Below are positions 15,440 to 31,845 of a DNA stretch of 64,000 bases, piece by piece. Both the position numbers and the translations under genes were made by a program. Numbering within the stretch: the stretch's first letter is position 1; each line of letters begins with the position of its first letter. The DNA is taken from positions 32,001-96,000 of the IMG/VR virus record IMGVR_UViG_3300027744_000013, one strand, 5' to 3'. The notes beneath the pieces are model-generated. The model worked only from the letters and a program-made list of their open reading frames with translations, did no database searches and had not been told where the DNA came from. The DNA comes from a virus.

Positions 15440-16681
15440 ATGAGCACACCCAACATACTACGCCGTTACATGGACATACTGGCAGAAAGAGTCACAATGA
15501 ATCCAGATGGTACTACGTCTGGTGGGTTTAAGCCCAACCCAGTAGATCCCAACGCACCTGTGGATCCCAGACATCAAGCCATGCAACAAGCCAAGGATCA
15601 AGCGGATCAAGCATATAATGCATGGGTTGTAACTCGCCCCAAAACAGCAGATGGACGCCTTATGCCAGCCAACTTGAATCCTGCCGCAGTTGAACGGGTG
15701 TTGGCTGGAGAAGATCCCAACACAGTTATCAAGGGTCGTAGCCAGCTGGGAGCATTTGGCACTGACCCCTCACAGTACAAAACATTGGCACAGCAGTATC
15801 TAGCATGGTTGGCCAAACAGCCCGCTAAGTTTGATAATATGGATCCCAAGTGGGATTCTCCACCTCCGGCAGCGGCAGCACCTGCTCCCGCCGGAGCAAT
15901 TAATATCAATGTGCAAGGTACTCAGCAGGCCGCTAAACTTAAAGCATATAACGATGCCAAGGCTGCTGGTGCAACAGAAGAACAAGCACAAAACGCAGAA
16001 GCAGCCGCAGGAAATCTTGCTGGTGCTGAAGCACTAAGTAAAGTTGATATAAACGATCCGTCTACATACGTTAATAATCCTAGATCTAACACCGGCCCAA
16101 GTTCTGAAGCAGAACGTCAACAATGGATACAAGATCCTACAAAGACTGCTACAGCAACGGCGCCTGCGGCGGCACCTGCCAAAGCTCCGTACAAGGGCAG
16201 TGCAGGCGCCCAAGAAATTCAAAAGTTAAATCCAGCGATTATAGATGTTAATCGAATACAAGTTGGACAAAAACTTAAGATGCCCAACGGTCAACCAGAT
16301 TATATTGTTAAGCCGGGTGATACATTAGATAGAATTGCCAAAGGTGTAAAACCAGCTCAAGGTGCGATGTCTGCAAATGTAGCACCAGCCGGGCAACCAG
16401 CCGCAACTGCCGCTAATCCCGCATTAGGTACTATAAAAGGCGCAACCCAGGCAATCCCAACAGTAGCACCGCCAGCAGGTAATCCAAGCGGAGTAGGAAA
16501 GAATGCAACATATACGACAGATGAAATTGCGGCGGCCCGCGAAGCATTAAAGGATCCAAAACTCGGCGCAAGGGACAGGGCATTTTATACTGGTATGTTA
16601 GCAAACCAACCAAAAGCAGTTAAAGAAAATACCGGATACGACGAAGTTGAGCGTATTGTGAGTTTGGTACATTACAGATAA
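15440..16681 (+). CDS. LysM-containing, Ala-rich probable virion protein
   Basis: LNPAIIDVNRIQVGQKL and YIVKPGDTLDRIA LysM motifs. Confidence 0.75.
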   Translation: MSTPNILRRYMDILAERVTMNPDGTTSGGFKPNPVDPNAPVDPRHQAMQQAKDQADQAYNAWVVTRPKTADGRLMPANLNPAAVERVLAGEDPNTVIKGRSQLGAFGTDPSQYKTLAQQYLAWLAKQPAKFDNMDPKWDSPPPAAAAPAPAGAININVQGTQQAAKLKAYNDAKAAGATEEQAQNAEAAAGNLAGAEALSKVDINDPSTYVNNPRSNTGPSSEAERQQWIQDPTKTATATAPAAAPAKAPYKGSAGAQEIQKLNPAIIDVNRIQVGQKLKMPNGQPDYIVKPGDTLDRIAKGVKPAQGAMSANVAPAGQPAATAANPALGTIKGATQAIPTVAPPAGNPSGVGKNATYTTDEIAAAREALKDPKLGARDRAFYTGMLANQPKAVKENTGYDEVERIVSLVHYR

Positions 16682-20453: not shown

Positions 20454-20498
20454 ATTCAAATGGTTGACCTTTGACAAATTACCATGTATACTAGTAAT

Positions 20499-21680
20499 AT
20501 GACGACTATAGATAAACTTTTAATTAAAATTGTAAATCAATCGGATCCTTCAGTTGAAGAAGTTATACCAAAGAGAGATGCTAGGGTATTGCGTAGCCTA
20601 GCAACGGCAATTTTAACACCTGGATTTATCACAGAAAATCAAAGTAAACTACTAGTTAAGATTTTAACTGAACATACTGGTAAATTTGTGCAAAATTTAG
20701 ACGAACTTGTTGAGTCGTTAATAACACCAAGTTGGTCTAAACTTTTTAGAGAAGTTGATAAAACTAAAAAAATGTATATTTCATCGGCTGAGCCGTTACT
20801 TGTCATCGAATTTGCATTTTCTTCAATTATGCGGAAATCAGTAACATCTAGTGTTAAAAAAATCAGCGGTCTGGTACAGGTAGCAAGTGGCAAAGTATAC
20901 TCCGCCGACCTGACTGAAGAAAATATTGAAACACTGGTCGAACTACTACAACCAATGGGTTTTGAAATAGAGGAAAAAATCCTGGATTTTTACAAAATCA
21001 TAAAATCTTGGGAAAAAACTGAAGTTAAGAATCAGTTCTTATTAACTAACATTACGCACAGCAACTTTCAAAAACAAATTACGGCCGACTTGGGTATTAG
21101 TACTCCAATTGACGATAACGTCATTAGTGACCGAAGTACTAGGTACCAATATTTTCATGAAAAATCCGGAAAAAATCCGGAAAAATTGACCGAAATTTTA
21201 GCCTATCGAAATTCAACAAAGGTATGGGTTGATAGAAATAAATGGTCATTAGACGAAATTATTTTTAGCTTAACAGAGTTAAAACGATTGCCGGTGTTGG
21301 TTGTCTTTGATAATAACGATCCTAAAAAATGCCTGGCTGAGATGGCAATTTTACATGAAAGTTTAGAAAATAATTCAATATACGATAATGTTGGAATTTA
21401 TTTTAGATTACCAAACGACGAGGTCGGAAGTCAGTTTAATAAATTTATTAGTGAACATAGTTACAACTGTCAACTTGATAATACGACAAAAGTAGTTGGG
21501 GTGCAAAATGGAAAAATTCCGAAATTTTTCCTAAAAAATGAATGGCGGCCGATGAGTGTCATTTCTGTGGGAAATACGCTTCGCCAAACAAAAACATCAG
21601 TGTATGCAAACTTATGCGACTTAATAATTTCACACACTGACACACAACCAATTATTGAGACAAGGAACGTATGGGAGTAA
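20499..21680 (+). CDS. Hypothetical protein upstream of uvsW
   Basis: TTGACC-17-TATACT then ATG 6 nt later. Confidence 0.65.
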   Translation: MTTIDKLLIKIVNQSDPSVEEVIPKRDARVLRSLATAILTPGFITENQSKLLVKILTEHTGKFVQNLDELVESLITPSWSKLFREVDKTKKMYISSAEPLLVIEFAFSSIMRKSVTSSVKKISGLVQVASGKVYSADLTEENIETLVELLQPMGFEIEEKILDFYKIIKSWEKTEVKNQFLLTNITHSNFQKQITADLGISTPIDDNVISDRSTRYQYFHEKSGKNPEKLTEILAYRNSTKVWVDRNKWSLDEIIFSLTELKRLPVLVVFDNNDPKKCLAEMAILHESLENNSIYDNVGIYFRLPNDEVGSQFNKFISEHSYNCQLDNTTKVVGVQNGKIPKFFLKNEWRPMSVISVGNTLRQTKTSVYANLCDLIISHTDTQPIIETRNVWE

Positions 21681-23140
21681 AATTAGTTATACGAGATGAG
21701 GTTAATATTAAATTTGAGAATCTTCCATTAGATGCTCGAAAAAAATTAACTAATACATTTAAGTATGAAAATCCAACTGCACGTTATCAACCTGCGTACA
21801 AATTAGGACGTTGGGATGGTATGGTCAGTATGTTTGGTCTTGGTGGTAACGGCTATTTGAGCCAGCTAGAAAAGTGCCTAGAAATACTTGCAAGTTTACG
21901 TGTACATATCGAAGATGTCGAAGACTTGCGTACCACTGGTCAAATTGAATTTAAAGAAATTACAAATACTTACTGGGCAGACCAAGGTAAGGTATGGCCT
22001 AAAGGACATCGATTTGCAGGGCAACCTATTACATTACGTGATGACCAAGTTGAGGTTGTAAACCGATTTTTTACCAATACGCAAGCACTACAAGAAGTAG
22101 CAACTGGTGCTGGTAAAACTATTATGACAGCAACATTAAGTCACTGTGCTGAAAAATACGGACGTACTATTGTAATTGTTCCTAACAAAGATCTTGTTAC
22201 ACAAACAGAAGAAGATTATATTAATGTTGGACTTGATGTTGGAGTTTACTTTGGCGATCGAAAGGATCTAGGTAAGACTCATACTATCTGTACATGGCAA
22301 AGTCTCAATGTGTTAGATAAGAAAAGTAAGAACTGGGACTTAGAAAATGCAATAACATTGGCAGAGTTCCTTGACGGTGTTAAGACAGTAATTGTTGACG
22401 AAGTACATATGGCCAAAGCGGAAGTGTTGAAGAACTTGCTTACACAAAACCTAGCAAATGCACCTATTCGTTGGGGACTAACTGGCACTGTTCCTAAAGA
22501 TGATTTTGAAGCACAACCTATATATGCTAGCATAGGCCCAGTAGTTGGCGGCATTAAAGCTCACCAATTACAAGAGATGGGTGTGCTTAGTAACCTGCAT
22601 GTAAACATTGTGCAGATGATAGATTTACCAGAATTTAAATCATACGCAGAAGAATTAAAATATCTTGTTACTAGCCCCGAGCGATTAGCGTATATTGCAA
22701 AAATAGTTAAAGGCTTATCAGAAACAGGCAATACATTAGTTCTGGTTAACAGAATTGATTCAGGCAAGCAACTAATAGAATTACTCGATGATGCTGTTTT
22801 TATTTCAGGCGAAGTAAAAGGCACAAAGAGGACCGAGGAGTACAAAGAACATGCAACAAATGATAACAAGATTACTGTGGCGACTTTTGGTGTGGCCTCT
22901 GTTGGTATTAATATCCCAAGGATTTTTAATCTGGTTCTTCTTGAACCCGGAAAGAGCTTTGTCCGTGTTATACAAAGCATTGGGCGAGGCATTAGAAAAG
23001 CAGAAGACAAAGACTTCGTACAAATCTGGGACATAACCAGTACTTGTAAGTATGCAAAACGGCACCTTACAGCGAGAAAGAAATTTTACAAGGATGCCAA
23101 GTATCCGTTTACTATTACTAAAACGGACTGGCAAAAATAA
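21671..23140 (+). CDS. uvsW: SF2 DNA helicase UvsW-like
   Basis: ATGAGKT, VDEVH, GLTGT, QSIGRGIR. Confidence 0.9.
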   Translation: MGVKLVIRDEVNIKFENLPLDARKKLTNTFKYENPTARYQPAYKLGRWDGMVSMFGLGGNGYLSQLEKCLEILASLRVHIEDVEDLRTTGQIEFKEITNTYWADQGKVWPKGHRFAGQPITLRDDQVEVVNRFFTNTQALQEVATGAGKTIMTATLSHCAEKYGRTIVIVPNKDLVTQTEEDYINVGLDVGVYFGDRKDLGKTHTICTWQSLNVLDKKSKNWDLENAITLAEFLDGVKTVIVDEVHMAKAEVLKNLLTQNLANAPIRWGLTGTVPKDDFEAQPIYASIGPVVGGIKAHQLQEMGVLSNLHVNIVQMIDLPEFKSYAEELKYLVTSPERLAYIAKIVKGLSETGNTLVLVNRIDSGKQLIELLDDAVFISGEVKGTKRTEEYKEHATNDNKITVATFGVASVGINIPRIFNLVLLEPGKSFVRVIQSIGRGIRKAEDKDFVQIWDITSTCKYAKRHLTARKKFYKDAKYPFTITKTDWQK

Positions 23141-23147
23141 AGGAATT

Positions 23148-23654
23148 ATGCAAATATTAACATTAGATAACAAGACTTTTTCATTAAACAATCTACCCGA
23201 CGAGGTAGATGATAGTACTAGATTTGCAGTTCTAGATAACAGTGACCCTAAAGAACCCGATTTCTTTTTTATGCCGTTAATCTTTCTTGAGAGTTTTAAT
23301 GCACCTGCCATGGTATTAAGGATTGGCGAAGATGAAGTAACAATGCCCATTGATTGGTGTATTGCAGTGGGTGATAGTAGCTGTGCTACTGACATTGAAA
23401 TTCTACCTTTAACTAGTTTAAATGACAGAGGATTTGAAGCACTGGTGTTTAATCCGTTGAGCTCGTTTAGGGTAGAGTTTAAGAAGATCGAAATTGTAAA
23501 TTTTTATAACGATGTTAAATGGTATTTTCCAAAGATGAAAAATGGACAACTATTAGCAGTACCGACTCGCTTTAAAGAACAACCAGATTGTGCTTATTTT
23601 GTAAAAGAAATTAGCAGACAAAGTGAGATAATTCAGTTAGATAAAATTCTATAA
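23148..23654 (+). CDS. Hypothetical beta-rich protein
   Basis: AGGA RBS, ATG 23148. Confidence 0.65.
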   Translation: MQILTLDNKTFSLNNLPDEVDDSTRFAVLDNSDPKEPDFFFMPLIFLESFNAPAMVLRIGEDEVTMPIDWCIAVGDSSCATDIEILPLTSLNDRGFEALVFNPLSSFRVEFKKIEIVNFYNDVKWYFPKMKNGQLLAVPTRFKEQPDCAYFVKEISRQSEIIQLDKIL

Positions 23655-24244
23655 TGTTTAAAGATATTGTCATCATTAACGATGCTATTCCAGTAGCCCA
23701 GCAAATAGAACTTGAAACTTTATTTACTGGGCCTACTATCCCATGGAGCCTAGTGCCGCCTGGCGAAGAGCATAATTCAACAAGCCTATCCACTAAAGAC
23801 TCAGTTGATTATACTCAATTTGTACACTTAGTATTCTGGGATGAACACAGCATTGTATCTCCATCGTTCCCATTAATGGTTCCTATACTTTCTGCAATGC
23901 CTATCAATATCAAACAGTTACTTAGAATCAAAGCCAACGTTACATTGTCAAATAAAAATCGTCCATTGGATAGCTATGGCATGCCACATGTTGATTTTAC
24001 TCCGCCGGTAAAAGGACTTGTGACAGCAATATACTATATTAATGACAGTGATGGCGATACTGTAATGTTTAATCAACTTGGCGATAAGTTATTGCCAATT
24101 CAAACAATTACTCCAAAACGGGGACGCTTGGTAATGTTTAATGGTTCTCGTTATCATTCGGGTAATTGTCCAACCGGTGATAAGCCACGAGCTCTATTGA
24201 ACATTAATTTTTTACCAGTAAAGGAATATAATGGGATCACTTAA
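23654..24244 (+). CDS. 2OG-Fe(II) oxygenase
   Basis: PHVD, IYYINDSDGDT, H..N, R...NINF. Confidence 0.8.
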   Translation: MFKDIVIINDAIPVAQQIELETLFTGPTIPWSLVPPGEEHNSTSLSTKDSVDYTQFVHLVFWDEHSIVSPSFPLMVPILSAMPINIKQLLRIKANVTLSNKNRPLDSYGMPHVDFTPPVKGLVTAIYYINDSDGDTVMFNQLGDKLLPIQTITPKRGRLVMFNGSRYHSGNCPTGDKPRALLNINFLPVKEYNGIT

Positions 24245-24521
24245 ACCTGGCGCAACATACATATATGAGCGTGACAGAGAAACAGTCTACGCTCGAGAAT
24301 TTGGTGCAGACCCAAGTACTAGACAAGTAGTCGGATGGGATTATGATAAAGAACATCCAAAGTTTGATCCTCGGACCAATGATGGCAGACCGTTACTTGA
24401 TCATATAATGGACAGCAAAATGTGGGGCGAAATTCGGCGAGAAGCACGTACCAATGTGACTTTACAAAAGGCTCTGGATCGTGTTATAATGATATACAAA
24501 TTAAGCAAGGACAAAATATAA
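24231..24521 (+). CDS. Hypothetical protein
   Basis: Coupled ORF. Confidence 0.6.
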   Translation: MGSLKPGATYIYERDRETVYAREFGADPSTRQVVGWDYDKEHPKFDPRTNDGRPLLDHIMDSKMWGEIRREARTNVTLQKALDRVIMIYKLSKDKI

Positions 24522-25174
24522 TGGCTTTACATATTGCATATTTTCAACCAACAATTTTTGCAATTGACACAGTTGCGCCGGTTGAATTTAGTAGAATTTT
24601 TAACTTAACTGAACAGTTACATGCGCATCCAGAGTTAGATGATGCATCCAATCCGTATACTAGTGTTCGTGGAGGACAGCAAATACAAGTATACCCAAAC
24701 GATCTTAACATTGATACTAGTTGGCTTGTTGCATACTTAGAAACAATGTGTAAAGGCTACATGGAAATTGTTTCTAAACAGAGTACAACAAAAGATTTAG
24801 ACATGTGTAGACCCGTTGTTACTAGCATTTGGACTATTAGACAATCCCAAGGACAGTATCAAGAATTGCACAGTCATCCAGGTGGAAATCTAAGCGGAAA
24901 CATTTATATCACTGCACCCGAGCTTACATTAGATAGTAATCCAAGTGACTCACAAATTGCATTTAGAATGCCGCAAACAAGAGACGTTACTAAATTTATG
25001 ATGTCAGATATATGGAAGTACAGCCCAACTCCAGGTTCGATTGTTCTGTTCCCAAGCCATATACCACATACCGTTTATCCGTGGAAAGGTATGGGATATC
25101 GTACTGTGTTAGCGTTTGATGCTAGATTAGTTCCTAAAGACGAAGTGTTAGAAACAGAGCAACCAAATGAGTGA
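24521..25174 (+). CDS. 2OG-Fe(II) oxygenase-like
   Basis: HSH, SGNIY, LFPSHIPH.V.P, RTVLAFD. Confidence 0.8.
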   Translation: MALHIAYFQPTIFAIDTVAPVEFSRIFNLTEQLHAHPELDDASNPYTSVRGGQQIQVYPNDLNIDTSWLVAYLETMCKGYMEIVSKQSTTKDLDMCRPVVTSIWTIRQSQGQYQELHSHPGGNLSGNIYITAPELTLDSNPSDSQIAFRMPQTRDVTKFMMSDIWKYSPTPGSIVLFPSHIPHTVYPWKGMGYRTVLAFDARLVPKDEVLETEQPNE

Positions 25175-25649
25175 AAAAATTGAATTAAAAGAGAAACTGT
25201 CGGCTGTTGATCAAAATGTCCGCGAGCTGTGGGACGCTATGGATGCAGACCAGCAGAAATCTCTTAAGAACGAATATTTTATTCTTAATCGTTATATTAG
25301 CAACGTGCAAGGACAAAAGCGTGAAATTCAAGAACACTTTGTACTAACTGTCAATGAGTATTTTAATAAGAACTGGAATCTTTTACAGAAGCATCCTAAA
25401 CTTATGTGGCTACTGTTGTGTATGTGTAGTCATAACGGAGAGACTGTATACTTCCATCAATGGTTAGGAAATAAAAAGAAAGATGCCGCAAATAGCAACA
25501 AGCGAGTTAAATTCTTAGCTGAAATTTATCCTAATAAAAAAATGGATGAGGTTGAAATGCTGGCTCAGCTAACTACAGATAAAGAGATGAAGGCCCTTGC
25601 TAAAACATACGGCATGGATGATGCAACGATCGCAAAGAAATTTAAATGA
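25167..25649 (+). CDS. Probable clamp-loader small subunit (gp62-like)
   Basis: FILNRYIS, FHQWL, LAEIYP; helical; replication module. Confidence 0.55.
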   Translation: MSEKIELKEKLSAVDQNVRELWDAMDADQQKSLKNEYFILNRYISNVQGQKREIQEHFVLTVNEYFNKNWNLLQKHPKLMWLLLCMCSHNGETVYFHQWLGNKKKDAANSNKRVKFLAEIYPNKKMDEVEMLAQLTTDKEMKALAKTYGMDDATIAKKFK

Positions 25650-26338
25650 TGGCTGTGGAAGAACAAACGTATACTTGTCAGTATTGTAGTAATAAATTTA
25701 CTAAAGAAAAAACGTTAGCTGTGCATGTATGCGAGCAAAAACGCAGGGCACTGGCTAAGACTGAAAGACATGTTGTTCTTGGATACGATACATATAACAA
25801 ATTTTATAGGATGAGTCAAAACTCTAAAGTTGACAAGACCTATGACGAGTTTGCTCATAGTTCGTATTATAATTCGTTTGTTAAGTTTGGTAGTTTTGTC
25901 TCTAATGTTAATCCGTTATATCCAGACAAGTTTATAAATTATGTAGTGACTAGTGGTGTTAAATTAGATCACTGGTGTAGAGATGAATTGTATGAAAAAT
26001 ACGTTCTACACTTGATTAAAACAGAACCGGTTGAAGTTGCACTAGAGCGTAGTATTAGTCATATGCTAACCTGGGCAGAAGACCAAGGAAGTGTATGGAA
26101 TCATTATTTTTTATATGTTAGTCTAAGCAGAGCTACGTACGACATCAAAGATGGTAAAATTAGTCCTTGGCTTGTACTAAATTCAGCAAATGGTAAATCA
26201 ATGCTGAAGAAGATGGGTGATGATCAGCTATCTGCAATAAGTAATATTATAGACTTGCAATTTTGGCTTAATAAGTTTAAGCAAAAGTCGGCAGATGCTG
26301 ATTTAGTCAAGCAAGTTGTTAAGGAATCTAACATATGA
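25646..26338 (+). CDS. Zn-finger protein
   Basis: YTCQYCSNKF...L..H.C. Confidence 0.65.
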   Translation: MMAVEEQTYTCQYCSNKFTKEKTLAVHVCEQKRRALAKTERHVVLGYDTYNKFYRMSQNSKVDKTYDEFAHSSYYNSFVKFGSFVSNVNPLYPDKFINYVVTSGVKLDHWCRDELYEKYVLHLIKTEPVEVALERSISHMLTWAEDQGSVWNHYFLYVSLSRATYDIKDGKISPWLVLNSANGKSMLKKMGDDQLSAISNIIDLQFWLNKFKQKSADADLVKQVVKESNI

Positions 26339-26526
26339 AAACGAATCATGTAAGTCCTAATCCAGATGCATTACAGCTTGAATTGCAAGTAATCGTGTCA
26401 GAAGAAGATAATTCGGTTTACGTAAAGTTTATAGGATTTGATACTATTGAAGAAGCTGACAAGTATGCCGACCACTTAACAGAACACTTACCTTTATTAC
26501 TTTTTGAATCAGAGATAAAACACTAA
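26335..26526 (+). CDS. Hypothetical protein
   Basis: Coupled 63-aa ORF. Confidence 0.55.
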   Translation: MKTNHVSPNPDALQLELQVIVSEEDNSVYVKFIGFDTIEEADKYADHLTEHLPLLLFESEIKH

Positions 26527-27104
26527 TGCCAGATATTGATATTGACTTTGCAGACAGAACAACCGCACTTAAAGTGTTTAAGAATGTCACGGCTGCAATC
26601 AGCGACAACGGAACTTTTAAAAAGCACAATACTGGAATATATTGTACTGCGATCCCGTACAATCCAATTACAGGAATAAGTACGATAGAGTATAAACAAG
26701 CAGAAGAACGAGGTTATTTTAAGTTAGACTTTTTAAATGTTAGTGTCTATGAAGGTGTAAAAGATAGGACACATTTACTCAAGTTAATGGAGACTGAACC
26801 GTTATGGGATCTACTGGAGCAAGACGACTTTACCCAACTACTATTCCATGTGAATGGGCATGGGTCTATTCTGAGACAAAGCAAGCCAAAGTCTATAGAG
26901 CAATTGGCCGCAGTACTGGCGATGATCAGACCCGCGAAACGTTATCTGATTGGGAAAGATTGGACTACGGTGATGAACGAAGTGTGGACGAAACCCGAGA
27001 ATAATGAGTATTACTTTAAAAAAGCACATGCTATTGCTTACGCACATGTGGTGGTAGTGCAGATGAATCTAATCTGTGAAAGTATAAGCTACGAGTTTAG
27101 TTAA
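26526..27104 (+). CDS. Miniature DnaE/Pol III alpha-like protein (catalytic core only)
   Basis: MPDIDIDF, KHNTG, GYFKLDFL, AMIRP, YYFKKAHAIAYA. Confidence 0.8.
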   Translation: MPDIDIDFADRTTALKVFKNVTAAISDNGTFKKHNTGIYCTAIPYNPITGISTIEYKQAEERGYFKLDFLNVSVYEGVKDRTHLLKLMETEPLWDLLEQDDFTQLLFHVNGHGSILRQSKPKSIEQLAAVLAMIRPAKRYLIGKDWTTVMNEVWTKPENNEYYFKKAHAIAYAHVVVVQMNLICESISYEFS

Positions 27105-27475
27105 CGAGTTTTTCGCACTAACTGTACTGATTTACGCTTTACACGCTTGAGTGTTAGATTCATCAAATTAACAACTGGACCTAGTATTACTCTAACATCC
27201 TTACTGTTAAAAGTTTTAACAGCATAAGCAAAGGGTAGTATTTGATCACGACAAATAATGCTAATTGGAAATTGTCTGTTTGATTCCCACCACCAAGTTT
27301 CTCCTATTTCTAAAAATAGGGTTTTTTCTTCTGGGGACTTTATTGCATTTAAATCGTAGAAGCTAGTAACAAATTGGTCTTGATTAATAATTATACCAAC
27401 GTATTCTTCTTCGCCGTAGTTTAATACGCTGATAAAGGGTAATTGTTGTTCGATGTTGTCTCTTAGTTTTGCCAT
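27101..27475 (-). CDS. Hypothetical protein
   Basis: YVGIIIN, WWWESNRQFPI; fills gap between + genes. Confidence 0.7.
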   Translation of the reverse strand: MAKLRDNIEQQLPFISVLNYGEEEYVGIIINQDQFVTSFYDLNAIKSPEEKTLFLEIGETWWWESNRQFPISIICRDQILPFAYAVKTFNSKDVRVILGPVVNLMNLTLKRVKRKSVQLVRKTR

Positions 27476-28350: not shown

Positions 28351-29364
28351 ATGAGTCTCATAGCCGATACATTACTACAACACTTACCCGGTAAACGAAA
28401 ACAGACCCCAAGCGGCTGGATAAGTTTCAATGCCCCGTGTTGTGATGACAAACGCCAACGTGGCGGCTTTATTATCAATGGCGGCGATGCAGTATCTTAC
28501 CATTGTTTCAATTGCGGATTTAAAGCAAGCTGGCAACCTGGTAGAACTATTAGTCAAAAAATGAGTAAACTAATGCGTGACCTTAATATGGGTGACGATA
28601 CAATTAGCCAACTTAGATTAGAAGCCCTTAGACTAAATGACAACTCGAATACGGTAATAACAAGTGTTATTCCAAAGTTTGAAACAAGAGCATTGCCACT
28701 GGATGCTATTAGTTTTGAAGAGTTAGATACATTCTTAAAACTTCCAGATGGTGACTATGCTGTTCCAACAAAATTTACCGAAGCAGTTGGATACTTGGTA
28801 GAAAGAAAGATTGATCCGTTTGCTTATCCGTTTTATTGGGCTAACAAAATAGGATTCAACAGCAGACTTATTATTCCGTTTTTATTCAAAGGTGTCATTG
28901 TTGGATGGACTGCCCGTGCTTTCAATGATGCTAAACCCAAGTATCTAAGTGAACAGCAACCTGGTTATGTGTTTAACTTAGACCGTCAAACTAATGAAAG
29001 AAATTTCGTAATTGTTAGTGAAGGGCCGTTTGATGCACTAAGTATTGATGGGTGTGCTTTATTAGGTGCTGAGATTAAAGACAGCCAGAACTGGTTACTA
29101 AAACAGCTGGGCAAAGAAATTGTGCTAGTACCAGATAGAGACCATGAAGGCCCACGGACTGTTGAACAAGCATTAGAGTTCGGCTGGAGTGTAAGCATGC
29201 CAGATTGGCCTGAAGATGTCAAAGATATAAACGATGCAGTGGTTAAGCTGGGCAAACTTGCCACACTATGGCTTATAACTAACGCAAAAGAATCAAATAG
29301 TCTTAAGATTCAACTTAGGGCAAAGAAGTGGTTTCCAAAGGATCAAAATGAAAAAAATAATTGA
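28351..29364 (+). CDS. DNA primase (gp61/DnaG-like)
   Basis: Zn finger with YHCFNCG; TOPRIM SEGPFDA, PDRD..G, KDINDA. Confidence 0.92.
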   Translation: MSLIADTLLQHLPGKRKQTPSGWISFNAPCCDDKRQRGGFIINGGDAVSYHCFNCGFKASWQPGRTISQKMSKLMRDLNMGDDTISQLRLEALRLNDNSNTVITSVIPKFETRALPLDAISFEELDTFLKLPDGDYAVPTKFTEAVGYLVERKIDPFAYPFYWANKIGFNSRLIIPFLFKGVIVGWTARAFNDAKPKYLSEQQPGYVFNLDRQTNERNFVIVSEGPFDALSIDGCALLGAEIKDSQNWLLKQLGKEIVLVPDRDHEGPRTVEQALEFGWSVSMPDWPEDVKDINDAVVKLGKLATLWLITNAKESNSLKIQLRAKKWFPKDQNEKNN

Positions 29365-29461
29365 CTTTCTATTAACTCCCTGGACATGGTACCAGGATCG
29401 CCGTGCGTTTAAAAAACGCCTAAAAGAATTACGCAAACGTGACCCGTTTATTTACAAATGA
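29348..29461 (+). CDS. 37-aa peptide coupled to carbamoyltransferase
   Basis: Read manually: MKKIIDFLLTPWTWYQDRRAFKKRLKELRKRDPFIYK; ATGA overlap with next gene. Confidence 0.65.
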   Translation: MKKIIDFLLTPWTWYQDRRAFKKRLKELRKRDPFIYK

Positions 29462-30396
29462 TACTTTGGGGCGTCAACGCATTAAATCACGGGCATAGTA
29501 TTGCTGTCTTTAAGGACGGCCAATTTGTCGATAACTATACTGGCACAAGCGATCAACTTGAAAGTGAAACCACTTTGAAATCGCTAGCACCAGGAAGTCC
29601 TGACAGGATATTTTGGTATGAAAATCCTTGGTTAAAGAAAGCTAGACAACTGTATGCTGGCCAATACAGTACAGCAATGAAGATAAGTGTACTGCCAAAA
29701 CGCTACATGCGATCATATCGATATGCTCCAATTACCTATACTGCCCACCACGCTAGTCATGCGGCGGCAGGATACTACACTAGCCCATTCAACCATTGCG
29801 CCATTGTTGTACTGGATGCCATTGGCGAGTTTGAGTGTGCTACTATTTGGCAAGGCCAGCACGGTGAAATGCGTAAGGTATGGAGTCGTTGGTATCCAAA
29901 TAGTCTTGGATTGTTCTATAGTGCATTTACACAACTAGTGGGATTAACACCTATACGTGATGAGTATTTGTTGACTCAAATGGCTGAACAAGGCGATGCC
30001 AGTGTGTACTATCAAGACGTTATGGGTTATATGGCGGGAATAGTTGAAGCCAAACAAAACATGCACAGGGGCATTAACAATTGGCCCCATGTGATTAGCA
30101 ACATACAAGATCAATGTAATATTGCCGCGGCAGTACAGCAAATATTCCAGAATCAAGTTGCACAAGTTATGGACACGGCCCTTGAGCTAACCAATGCCGA
30201 TTGCCTAGTTTACATGGGCGGATGTGCTATGAACAAGAGTGCCAACACCAATGTGGTTGAGCCCCGATTCAAGCACATATGGTCATTGCCCAATCCTGGT
30301 GACCCTAGCAGTTCAATTGGTGCTGTCACATATCATACTAAACAGCGAGTCTGGCGCACATGGGATCCAGTCAAACATATTGCTATCAACGTTTAA
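29458..30396 (+). CDS. Carbamoyltransferase (NodU/CmcH) Kae1-like domain only
   Basis: HHASHAAAGYYTSPF, VLDAIGE, SLGLFYS, MGGCAMN, PNPGD. Confidence 0.85.
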   Translation: MILWGVNALNHGHSIAVFKDGQFVDNYTGTSDQLESETTLKSLAPGSPDRIFWYENPWLKKARQLYAGQYSTAMKISVLPKRYMRSYRYAPITYTAHHASHAAAGYYTSPFNHCAIVVLDAIGEFECATIWQGQHGEMRKVWSRWYPNSLGLFYSAFTQLVGLTPIRDEYLLTQMAEQGDASVYYQDVMGYMAGIVEAKQNMHRGINNWPHVISNIQDQCNIAAAVQQIFQNQVAQVMDTALELTNADCLVYMGGCAMNKSANTNVVEPRFKHIWSLPNPGDPSSSIGAVTYHTKQRVWRTWDPVKHIAINV

Positions 30397-30414: not shown

Positions 30415-31845
30415 ATGAAACAAAATACAGACTACGGCTACGACATACAAAAACTATATTTAGAAATGATGCTGGCTGATGCGGCCACATTTGTACGTTG
30501 CCAATCAATCTTTGATCACACACTATTTGATCGCAAGCTACAGATGTCCGCGGAATTTATGAACACTTATGTTGAAGAACATAATGTCATGCCCACAATT
30601 GACATTGTCAATGCGGCCACTGATGCCAGCTTCAAACCCGCAGAGAATCTACGTGAAGAACACTTTGATTGGTTACTGGCAGACTTTGAAACATTCATCC
30701 GCCATAAAGGTCTTGAGAAAGCTATTCTAGCTTCAGCTGACCTGTTGGAAAAAGGTGAGTACGGCCCAGTAGAAGAATTGGTCAAGAAGGCAGTGCAAGT
30801 TGGATTGCAAAAGGACATGGGCACTGATTACTTTCTAGATCCCCGTGCTCGATTGCTCAAGATCAAAGACAAGAACGGACAGTTGAGCACTGGCTGGAAG
30901 AGTGTAGATGACAAACTGTTTGGTGGTATGAACCGCGGAGAGTTGAATATCTTTGCAGGTGGCTCGGGCGCAGGCAAGAGTTTGTTTCTGGCTAACTTGG
31001 GTTGTAATTGGGCATTGCAGGGTTTGAATGTGGTGTACTTGACATTAGAACTTAGTGAAGAACTAGTGTCAATGCGTGTTGACAGCATGTTAACAGGGAT
31101 CCCGACTAGAGAGATTTTTAAACATCTAGATGATGTCGAGATGAAGGTGAAAGTGATTGGCAAAAAGTCGGGCACCTTCCAAGTCAAGTATATGCCGTCT
31201 GGGAAGACCGCAAATGACTTGCGATCATACTTGAAAGAATATGAAATCAAGACTGATCGTAAAGTAGATGTACTATTAGTAGACTACTTGGACTTGCTCA
31301 TGCCAATCTCAAAGAAGATTAGCCCCGCAGACTTGTTTATCAAGGACAAGTATGTGTCAGAAGAATTACGTAACCTAGCAGTGGAAAAGAACTGTATATT
31401 TGTCACAGCCGCACAGTTGAACCGTGGTGCTGTTGAAGAAGTTGAGTTTGATCACAGTCATATCTCAGGTGGACTTAGCAAGATCCAAACTGCGGATAAT
31501 GTGTTTGGTATCTTCACATCAAGGGCAATGCGTGAACGTGGACGTTATCAAATACAACTGATGAAAACACGTAGTAGCAGTGGTGTGGGCATGAAAATTG
31601 ATCTGGAGTTCAATGTGGACAGTTTGCGTATCAGCGACTGTGAACAAGAAGACTCATATGGCAACAGTACCAGCGCCAGTGCAGGTTCAAGTTTGTTGGC
31701 ATCAATCAAGAATCGTCAAACAGTTGATCCTGCTACAGGTGAATTGGATCCCAACAGTCTAGTGCCCATACCCAAAGTACGTGCCCAAGTTGAAAGTAGT
31801 AAACTACGTGAACTGTTGAATAATCTTCCTAGTGATGACGTATAA
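30415..31845 (+). CDS. Replicative DnaB-like helicase (gp41-like)
   Basis: GGSGAGKS, TLELSE, VDYLDL, AAQLNR, MKTR. Confidence 0.93.
   Translation: MKQNTDYGYDIQKLYLEMMLADAATFVRCQSIFDHTLFDRKLQMSAEFMNTYVEEHNVMPTIDIVNAATDASFKPAENLREEHFDWLLADFETFIRHKGLEKAILASADLLEKGEYGPVEELVKKAVQVGLQKDMGTDYFLDPRARLLKIKDKNGQLSTGWKSVDDKLFGGMNRGELNIFAGGSGAGKSLFLANLGCNWALQGLNVVYLTLELSEELVSMRVDSMLTGIPTREIFKHLDDVEMKVKVIGKKSGTFQVKYMPSGKTANDLRSYLKEYEIKTDRKVDVLLVDYLDLLMPISKKISPADLFIKDKYVSEELRNLAVEKNCIFVTAAQLNRGAVEEVEFDHSHISGGLSKIQTADNVFGIFTSRAMRERGRYQIQLMKTRSSSGVGMKIDLEFNVDSLRISDCEQEDSYGNSTSASAGSSLLASIKNRQTVDPATGELDPNSLVPIPKVRAQVESSKLRELLNNLPSDDV

Follow-up and report, generated by a model that had tools for sequence, protein, structure and literature searches.

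The window analysed here comprises bases 32001-96000 of a 108-kb viral contig (IMG/VR record IMGVR_UViG_3300027744_000013; CheckV completeness estimate 29%), and all positions below are counted from the first base of this 64,000-nucleotide stretch. At 26526-27104 it carries a short gene whose product resembles the catalytic centre of DnaE, the alpha subunit of bacterial DNA polymerase III (Pol III alpha), and which is probably one of the two genes of a split, minimal polymerase; we refer to it as the C-half gene and to its product as the C-half. The window sequence recurs in freshwater and lake metagenomes, and the source of the gene is an uncultured freshwater or lake jumbo phage. The gene and its motifs are laid out as follows.

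26526-27104, plus strand: C-half coding sequence, 192 residues plus stop, probable C-terminal unit of a split minimal Pol III alpha (PHROG 11778 profile, AlphaFold2 model, VIA-align)
26529-26549, plus strand: PDIDIDF motif, residues 2-8; Asp3 and Asp5 correspond to the metal ligands D401 and D403 of Escherichia coli DnaE, Asp7 to D405
Residues 33-37 of the C-half: KHNTG motif
26721-26735, plus strand: KLDFL motif, residues 66-70; Asp68 corresponds to E. coli D555, the third catalytic aspartate, and Lys66 is invariant
26919-26933, plus strand: AMIRP fingers motif, residues 132-136, with Arg135-Pro136
27009-27041, plus strand: YYFKKAHAIAY fingers motif, residues 162-172

The ATG of the C-half gene overlaps the TAA of an upstream 63-residue open reading frame (ORF) in the sequence TAATG, and its stop codon shares 4 nt with a convergent gene. 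An earlier reading of the window, made without database searches (the sequence-only reading), had listed these five motifs in DnaE order within a frame with coupled start and stop, and had described a protein that keeps the three catalytic aspartates while lacking PHP, clamp-binding and OB domains. The description holds: the ORF is real, all five motifs were found in DnaE order, and Pfam detects no PHP, helix-hairpin-helix (HhH), clamp-binding or OB domain in the C-half, whose length of 192 residues leaves no room for them. In E. coli DnaE the metal ligands are D401, D403 and D555, while D405 is an extra aspartate typical of DnaE that is replaced by asparagine in PolC (PMC3919608); this DnaE-type extra aspartate is retained as D7 in the C-half.

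The DnaE likeness of the C-half is beyond chance, as indicated by profile and structure comparisons. The protein matches PHROG 11778, 'DNA polymerase', with E=1.9e-66, residues 3-186 lying on positions 8-194 of a profile of 197. As a single query against the PDB, phmmer returned Mycobacterium tuberculosis DnaE1 with the motifs colinear at residues 413, ~661 and 774, at an E value of 1.3 that is not significant alone, and the Pfam DNA_pol3_finger model scored E=0.056 on the C-half alone. A profile built from 86 diverse homologs gave nine matches in the PDB, all of them Pol III alpha, with E values from 8.6e-6 to 9.8e-5. In the corresponding hidden Markov model (HMM) alignment, K66 and D68 fall on E. 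coli KFDFL (D555), AMIRP falls on residues 640-641 within 'ALFRPG', and YYFKKAHAIAY falls on 'YGFNKSHSAAYAL' at about residues 751-765; hhalign against a full-length metagenomic DnaE (E=2.3e-5) likewise set AMIRP against 'ALYRPG'.

The structure prediction that the sequence-only reading had proposed as a check gave a confident model of the C-half alone, with a predicted local distance difference test score (pLDDT) of 96.9 and a predicted template modelling score of 0.89, and this model matched C-family polymerases only. The top 17 Foldseek matches were all Pol III alpha, and in VIA-align 15 C-family polymerases ranked first at Z scores of 6.0-9.9 with 174-188 residues aligned. The best Z scores were 9.9 for Taq residues 461-841, 9.6 for M. 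tuberculosis 419-808, 9.4 for PolC 971-1296 and 9.1 for E. coli 400-781, these four matches aligning 184-188 residues, and the next, unrelated chain followed at Z 3.1. Residues 1-190 of the C-half are placed on E. coli 400-781 and Taq 461-841. The 192 residues thus cover a stretch of DnaE roughly twice as long (about 380 residues), with the thumb and part of the fingers deleted, and the chain stops near E. coli residue 781, well short of the distal fingers, the HhH domain, the clamp motif and the OB fold. Compared with bacterial DnaE (2HNH from E. coli, 3E0D from Thermus aquaticus and 5LEW from M. tuberculosis), the C-half shares the Pol-beta-type palm with D401, D403, D555 and D405, as well as the KxDFL, RP and FNKSHA-type motifs in identical order. 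In contrast to the bacterial enzymes, it has no PHP domain, N-terminal palm half, thumb, distal fingers, HhH domain, beta-clamp motif, OB fold or tau-binding region. What remains in it is the metal-binding palm half together with reduced fingers.

This reduced architecture is common to a large family. At clustering thresholds of 90% and 50% identity the family comprises at least 8000 and 420 clusters, respectively; its full-length members measure 183-219 residues, and the gene is present on at least 548 IMG/VR contigs and, by tblastn, in 96 isolate records, of which the 40 listed are nearly all jumbo phages of the RaK2, 121Q, PA5oct, Atu_ph07, Phosso and XaC1 type. Within a set of 84 sequences, which range from 188 to 213 residues, D3, D5, D7, K66, D68, R135, P136, F164, K165, K166, H168 and A169 are conserved in every one. 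Among 86 diverse representatives (30-57% identity), no columns are invariant other than D3, D5, K66, D68 and P136, so the catalytic aspartates are kept as the sequence-only reading had stated, and D7 is at least 90% conserved. All members of the family have the same internal deletions with respect to DnaE. The median pairwise ratio of nonsynonymous to synonymous substitution rates (dN/dS), another check that had been proposed, is 0.12 over 135 unsaturated pairs. The C-half and its active site are under strong constraint.

The C-half begins at the DxD strand, which means that it is without the half of the Pol-beta-type palm that holds the helix and the GS loop. This missing palm half is encoded by a separate gene of about 170 residues, the N-half gene, whose product matches Pfam PF07733 and PHROG 11127. 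In the isolates Phosso, PAC2 and RaK2 the N-half genes encode 169-177 residues and match PF07733 (positions ~20-96) above the cut-off, at 46.5, 37 and 34.1 bits, respectively, and they lie 224 kb, 44 kb and 34 kb from the C-half gene. The N-halves carry an invariant W-G-x-G-R-G-S-S block, the nucleotide-binding loop, and in the isolates they terminate at '...LD..EFL[K/N]', or at EFLKY in RaK2, which is the point where full-length DnaE reads '...FERFLNPER..MPDIDVDF'. Among 76 N-half ORFs from IMG/VR loci (158-264 residues), every tail listed ends at this split point, ...EFL[K/R]; none of these loci contains a C-half gene. In four of five long contigs from close relatives of the window, whose C-halves are 73-81% identical to ours, the N-half gene lies 159-184 kb from the C-half gene. 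Isolate counts by tblastn are equal for the two halves in Escherichia (34), Pseudomonas (11), Erwinia (8), Salmonella (8), Xanthomonas (4) and Yersinia (4), and stand at 11 versus 10 in Klebsiella; both halves occur in the same phage groups. No intein sequence was found on either side of the split, and neither half has spare length for intein blocks.

Beside the N-half gene we made two further observations. In RaK2, Phosso, PAC2 and a close relative it is directly followed by a gene for a small conserved protein (PHROG 14844, motif NARGD..G.GG), which could be another conserved partner of the N-half. The loci are L089:1255-1470 (-) and L089:932-1252 (-), with the same order in L005, L006 and L007; in the lake relative a GroES/Cpn10-like gene comes next.

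The two families also occur naturally as one chain. Only three one-piece proteins are known (P0224, P0272 and P0273), of 375-376 residues; they are 78-81% identical to each other and come from independent data sets, all on short metagenome contigs. In the 375-residue protein, residues 190-370 match the C-half and the N-terminal part is the N-half, the two being joined by a linker of about 9 residues after '...EFIKD'. These proteins match PHROG 11127 and PHROG 11778 in tandem, and a continuous PF07733 match of 59.6 bits crosses the junction. They hold the same families and motifs as the split genes, differing in that these are fused in one chain, and they serve as Rosetta-stone evidence for a single enzyme made by the two split genes. 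The IMG/VR scans returned no one-piece copy, and a metagenome scan for such forms gave one split-type relative of the C-half and two matches across the junction position. One such junction-spanning match, L187, was rejected as a one-piece mini-DnaE; it is a full-length bacterial DnaE of 1160 residues. We likewise set aside P0121 (550 residues) as a longer homolog of the C-half: in it the final 33 residues of the family (88% identity) come after a DnaQ exonuclease and a PHP domain, and it is most likely a chimeric metagenome assembly and not a real fusion.

Other pieces of DnaE were sought in the 108-kb contig, in long relatives and in the complete genomes of RaK2 and PAC2. The PHP domain (PF02811) gave no match in the contig, in two long relatives or in the two complete genomes, while the same search recovered it in 14 of 14 control genomes. 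No HhH domain (PF14579) was matched in the contig, the relatives, RaK2 or PAC2, and in the same sequences no further fingers piece was found, the only signal being a short sub-threshold match inside the C-half gene. A family B polymerase, which the sequence-only reading had suggested looking for together with other DnaE pieces, is present in RaK2, in PAC2 and in two of the three long relative contigs searched (G002 and G003); on the 108-kb contig none was found.

The reading that we favour, at a probability of about 0.82, is that the C-half forms the C-terminal part, binding Mg2+ and template, of a minimal DnaE-type (family C) polymerase that is encoded by two genes and is specific to RaK2/PA5oct-like ('group 2.2') jumbo phages. 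In DnaE, the two fingers motifs lie by the incoming nucleotide and the template, as in the Taq ternary complex. The C-half would supply D3, D5, D68 and Lys66 together with these two motifs (RP and FKK-HA), and the N-half would contribute the GS triphosphate-binding loop. Because no intein halves flank the break, the two proteins would have to associate non-covalently, rebuilding the palm and giving a catalytic core of about 360 residues, and because the palm is completed by a separate protein, the C-half should be unable to act alone. Both the formation of this heterodimer and its activity as a templated DNA polymerase are what we infer from the sequences.

Several observations weigh against this reading. 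The core of about 360 residues has no PHP domain, thumb, most of the fingers, HhH domain, clamp-binding motif or OB fold, and with the thumb and clamp-binding elements for holding DNA absent, efficient templated synthesis is not assured. On the C-half alone the Pfam DnaE models fall short of their thresholds: PF07733 reaches 16.7 bits (cut-off 23.9), and PF17657 reaches 13.2 and 12.8 bits (cut-off 22). Searches of the whole 108-kb contig by tblastn, by a 3-sequence HMM over six frames and for G[RK]GS motifs found no N-half (best E=0.18), so for this particular genome the partnership is taken from its relatives. This absence is explained by spacing, since the two genes lie 159-184 kb apart in the relatives and the C-half gene is flanked by only 58 and 49.5 kb on this contig.

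The split mini-DnaE is already known, having been predicted from sequence in 2021, and is not new here. Iyer, Anantharaman, Krishnan, Burroughs & Aravind (2021, Viruses 13:63; PMC7824862) described a minimal, phage-specific form of Pol III alpha that group 2.2 jumbo phages carry beside a family B polymerase (section 3.4.1 and Figure 3b). The C-half corresponds to their C-terminal unit (PHROG 11778) in family, size, Mg2+- and template-binding content, and phage group, namely jumbo genomes with a T4-like replication module, and in their system the N-terminal unit, which binds nucleoside triphosphate, likewise comes from a distant gene. Nothing essential differs in the lake phage clade, where the spacing between the genes is 159-184 kb in the relatives of the window, compared with 34-44 kb in RaK2 and PAC2. 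Both halves are already labelled 'DNA polymerase III alpha' in GenBank and JGI records, and a full-text literature search found no experimental study of the split minimal enzyme. Its two-gene layout can be set beside that of a known system. Cyanobacterial DnaE, the source of the Ssp and Npu DnaE split inteins, is a DnaE-type polymerase made from two distant genes. In contrast to that intein-split enzyme, which shares the encoding by two distant genes, the mini-DnaE has no intein halves and is split inside the palm core.

The genes around the C-half belong to a T4-like replication and recombination block that includes a gp32-like single-stranded DNA-binding protein (SSB), UvsX, UvsY, UvsW, primase and a DnaB-like helicase. 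Those that bear on its interpretation are listed here.

21671-23140, plus strand: UvsW-type helicase, the start of the conserved block (PHROG 16, E=1.9e-71), with the same gene order in PAC2 and RaK2
25646-26338, plus strand: 230-residue CCHC zinc-finger protein with an all-helical body (PHROG 11058, E=4.6e-60)
26335-26526, plus strand: 63-residue ORF, translationally coupled to the C-half gene; no PHROG match, and in Pfam only a sub-threshold match to RimM (E=0.073)
27101-27475, minus strand: convergent gene of 124 residues (PHROG 11637, E=6.2e-31), found in 80 loci including RaK2, PAC2 and Phosso
28351-29364, plus strand: DNA primase (PHROG 47, E=1.1e-46)
30415-31845, plus strand: DnaB-like replicative helicase (PHROG 19, E=2.1e-66)

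The sequence-only reading had placed the C-half gene near a clamp-loader subunit, a primase and a helicase. The primase at 28351 and the helicase at 30415 are there as stated, but the clamp loader was not found: none of the ORFs scanned from 2.6 to 35.5 kb is such a gene, and the contig gave no match to PF13177. The zinc-finger gene lies upstream of the C-half gene in 83 of 83 related loci, including those of three distant isolates, at distances from 3 nt to 3 kb, and residues C11, C14, H27 and C29 of its product are invariant. Its AlphaFold2 model (pLDDT 89.4) shows no significant fold match (best Foldseek E=1.3; best Z in the VIA-wide comparison 4.5), and the protein has no DnaE homology. 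As a loader of the gp59 type it was considered and rejected, the matches to lambda P (Foldseek E=1.3) and to the C-domain of T4 gp59 (Z 3.2) being at noise level, as were HMG-box-like matches that the model also gave, and Pfam gp59 (PF08994) has no match in these phage genomes. That it is a very divergent helicase loader is conceivable but unsupported; it is possibly an accessory factor at most, and not a piece of DnaE. The 63-residue ORF is a variable insert rather than a conserved partner: it occurs in 26 of the 83 related loci and is absent from all three isolates.

Contigs from four lake metatranscriptome studies span the C-half gene at 95% identity or more. They carry no strand or expression level and may reflect carry-over of DNA in the RNA libraries, so they provide weak support for expression of the gene. 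The RNA-library contigs of all four studies diverge from the window at the same points, before 26481 and after 27399, which suggests co-occurring relatives with different flanking sequence and is consistent with the region of the 63-residue ORF being a variable insert.

Elsewhere in the block, two different 2OG-Fe(II) oxygenase genes (PF13640 and PF13759) lie between UvsW and the mini-DnaE block, at 23654-24244 (+) and 24521-25174 (+); the first is present in 2 and the second in 53 of the 83 related loci. Between the primase and the helicase, the gene at 29458-30396 (+) holds only the N-terminal carbamoyltransferase domain (PF02543, E=5e-27). Two large ORFs within the replication and structural block, at 20484-21680 (+) and 15440-16681 (+), encode 398 and 413 residues and matched nothing in PHROG; Pfam gave no match either for the first of them. 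RaK2 carries, in the position preceding uvsW, a gene annotated as a DnaQ-like exonuclease.

Four other accounts of the gene have to be weighed against a two-gene polymerase, two of which were put forward by the sequence-only reading. It had allowed that the 192-residue protein might be a minimal C-family nucleotidyltransferase sufficient in itself, an idea that gains from the confident fold of the C-half alone, from its three metal-binding aspartates and from the absence of an N-half on the 108-kb contig. This we regard as very improbable, because the GS loop and helices that are integral to a Pol-beta-type palm are missing from the C-half and are encoded by a co-occurring gene, because the split point is fixed and the two halves occur in natural fusions, and because the wide spacing in relatives accounts for the absence on the contig. 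Its second proposal, that the gene encodes one subunit of a split C-family polymerase, is borne out by the distant N-half gene and the one-piece forms, with a different partner from those it had named, the neighbours at 25646 and 26335: the half that completes the palm is the distant gene of about 170 residues. A version in which the zinc-finger protein, with or without the 63-residue ORF, completes the enzyme as a subunit, for example as a DNA-binding part or a substitute for the thumb, draws on the constancy of the zinc-finger gene in all 83 loci, where it is often only 3 nt away, and on the fact that the mini-polymerase has no DNA-holding domains of its own. It is nevertheless unlikely, as the zinc-finger protein lacks both homology to DnaE domains and a significant structural match, the 63-residue ORF is confined to a minority of loci and the palm partner has been identified elsewhere. 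Adjacency is weak evidence here because synteny extends over the entire UvsW-to-helicase block.

The two halves could also form an active enzyme that is not a templated polymerase, namely a template-independent nucleotidyltransferase that retains only chemistry of the Pol-beta type and serves, for example, to add tails to the ends of DNA or RNA or to produce a nucleotide signal or modification. Small enzymes of the Pol-beta fold are commonly non-templated, the thumb, most of the fingers, the HhH domain, the clamp-binding motif and the OB fold are gone, and these phages already own a family B replicase. Against this, the RP and Y-FKK-HA-Y motifs that the family has kept are conserved fingers elements of DnaE and are invariant here, and primase, helicase, UvsW and SSB share a conserved block with the C-half gene even in phages as far apart as RaK2, PA5oct-like phages and Phosso; we consider a template-independent enzyme improbable. 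That the C-half might be a decaying or misassembled fragment of a full-length dnaE has been refuted already. Its short length and the chimeric P0121, with its last 33 family residues, might suggest such an origin, but the family recurs at narrow length in thousands of clusters and is carried by hundreds of IMG/VR loci and 96 isolate records, the catalytic residues are invariant under a dN/dS of 0.12 and the internal deletions are common to all members; homologs of erratic length with eroded aspartate motifs, or a single misassembled contig, are therefore not what the data contain.

If the C-half and N-half do form a minimal DnaE-type polymerase, our best guess is that this core would be an auxiliary, probably distributive enzyme acting beside the family B replicase in gap filling, repair or primer extension, a role that we favour because the core has no thumb or clamp-binding part and because this phage group has its own family B replicase. 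A more specific proposal, in which the mini-DnaE, perhaps with the zinc-finger protein, is a second fork polymerase coupled to the adjacent primase and helicase, for example extending RNA primers before hand-off to the family B replicase, we hold to be doubtful. Forks in Firmicutes use PolC plus DnaE, with DnaE extending RNA primers. The mini-DnaE would resemble this arrangement as a second polymerase beside the main replicase, encoded next to the primase and helicase genes, but the likeness is one of possible functional analogy, and the main replicase here is of family B in the relatives.

Were the mini-DnaE such a second fork polymerase, these jumbo phages would have a mixed replisome of family B and family C enzymes. 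With about 360 residues in two chains, a working core of this kind would be far smaller than any other family C polymerase, and it would separate the parts of Pol III alpha that are needed for chemistry from those needed for processivity. In one phage, moreover, a polymerase core of bacterial type stands beside a family B replicase of the archaeo-eukaryotic type, a pairing that Iyer et al. (2021; PMC7824862) used in their argument on early replicon evolution.

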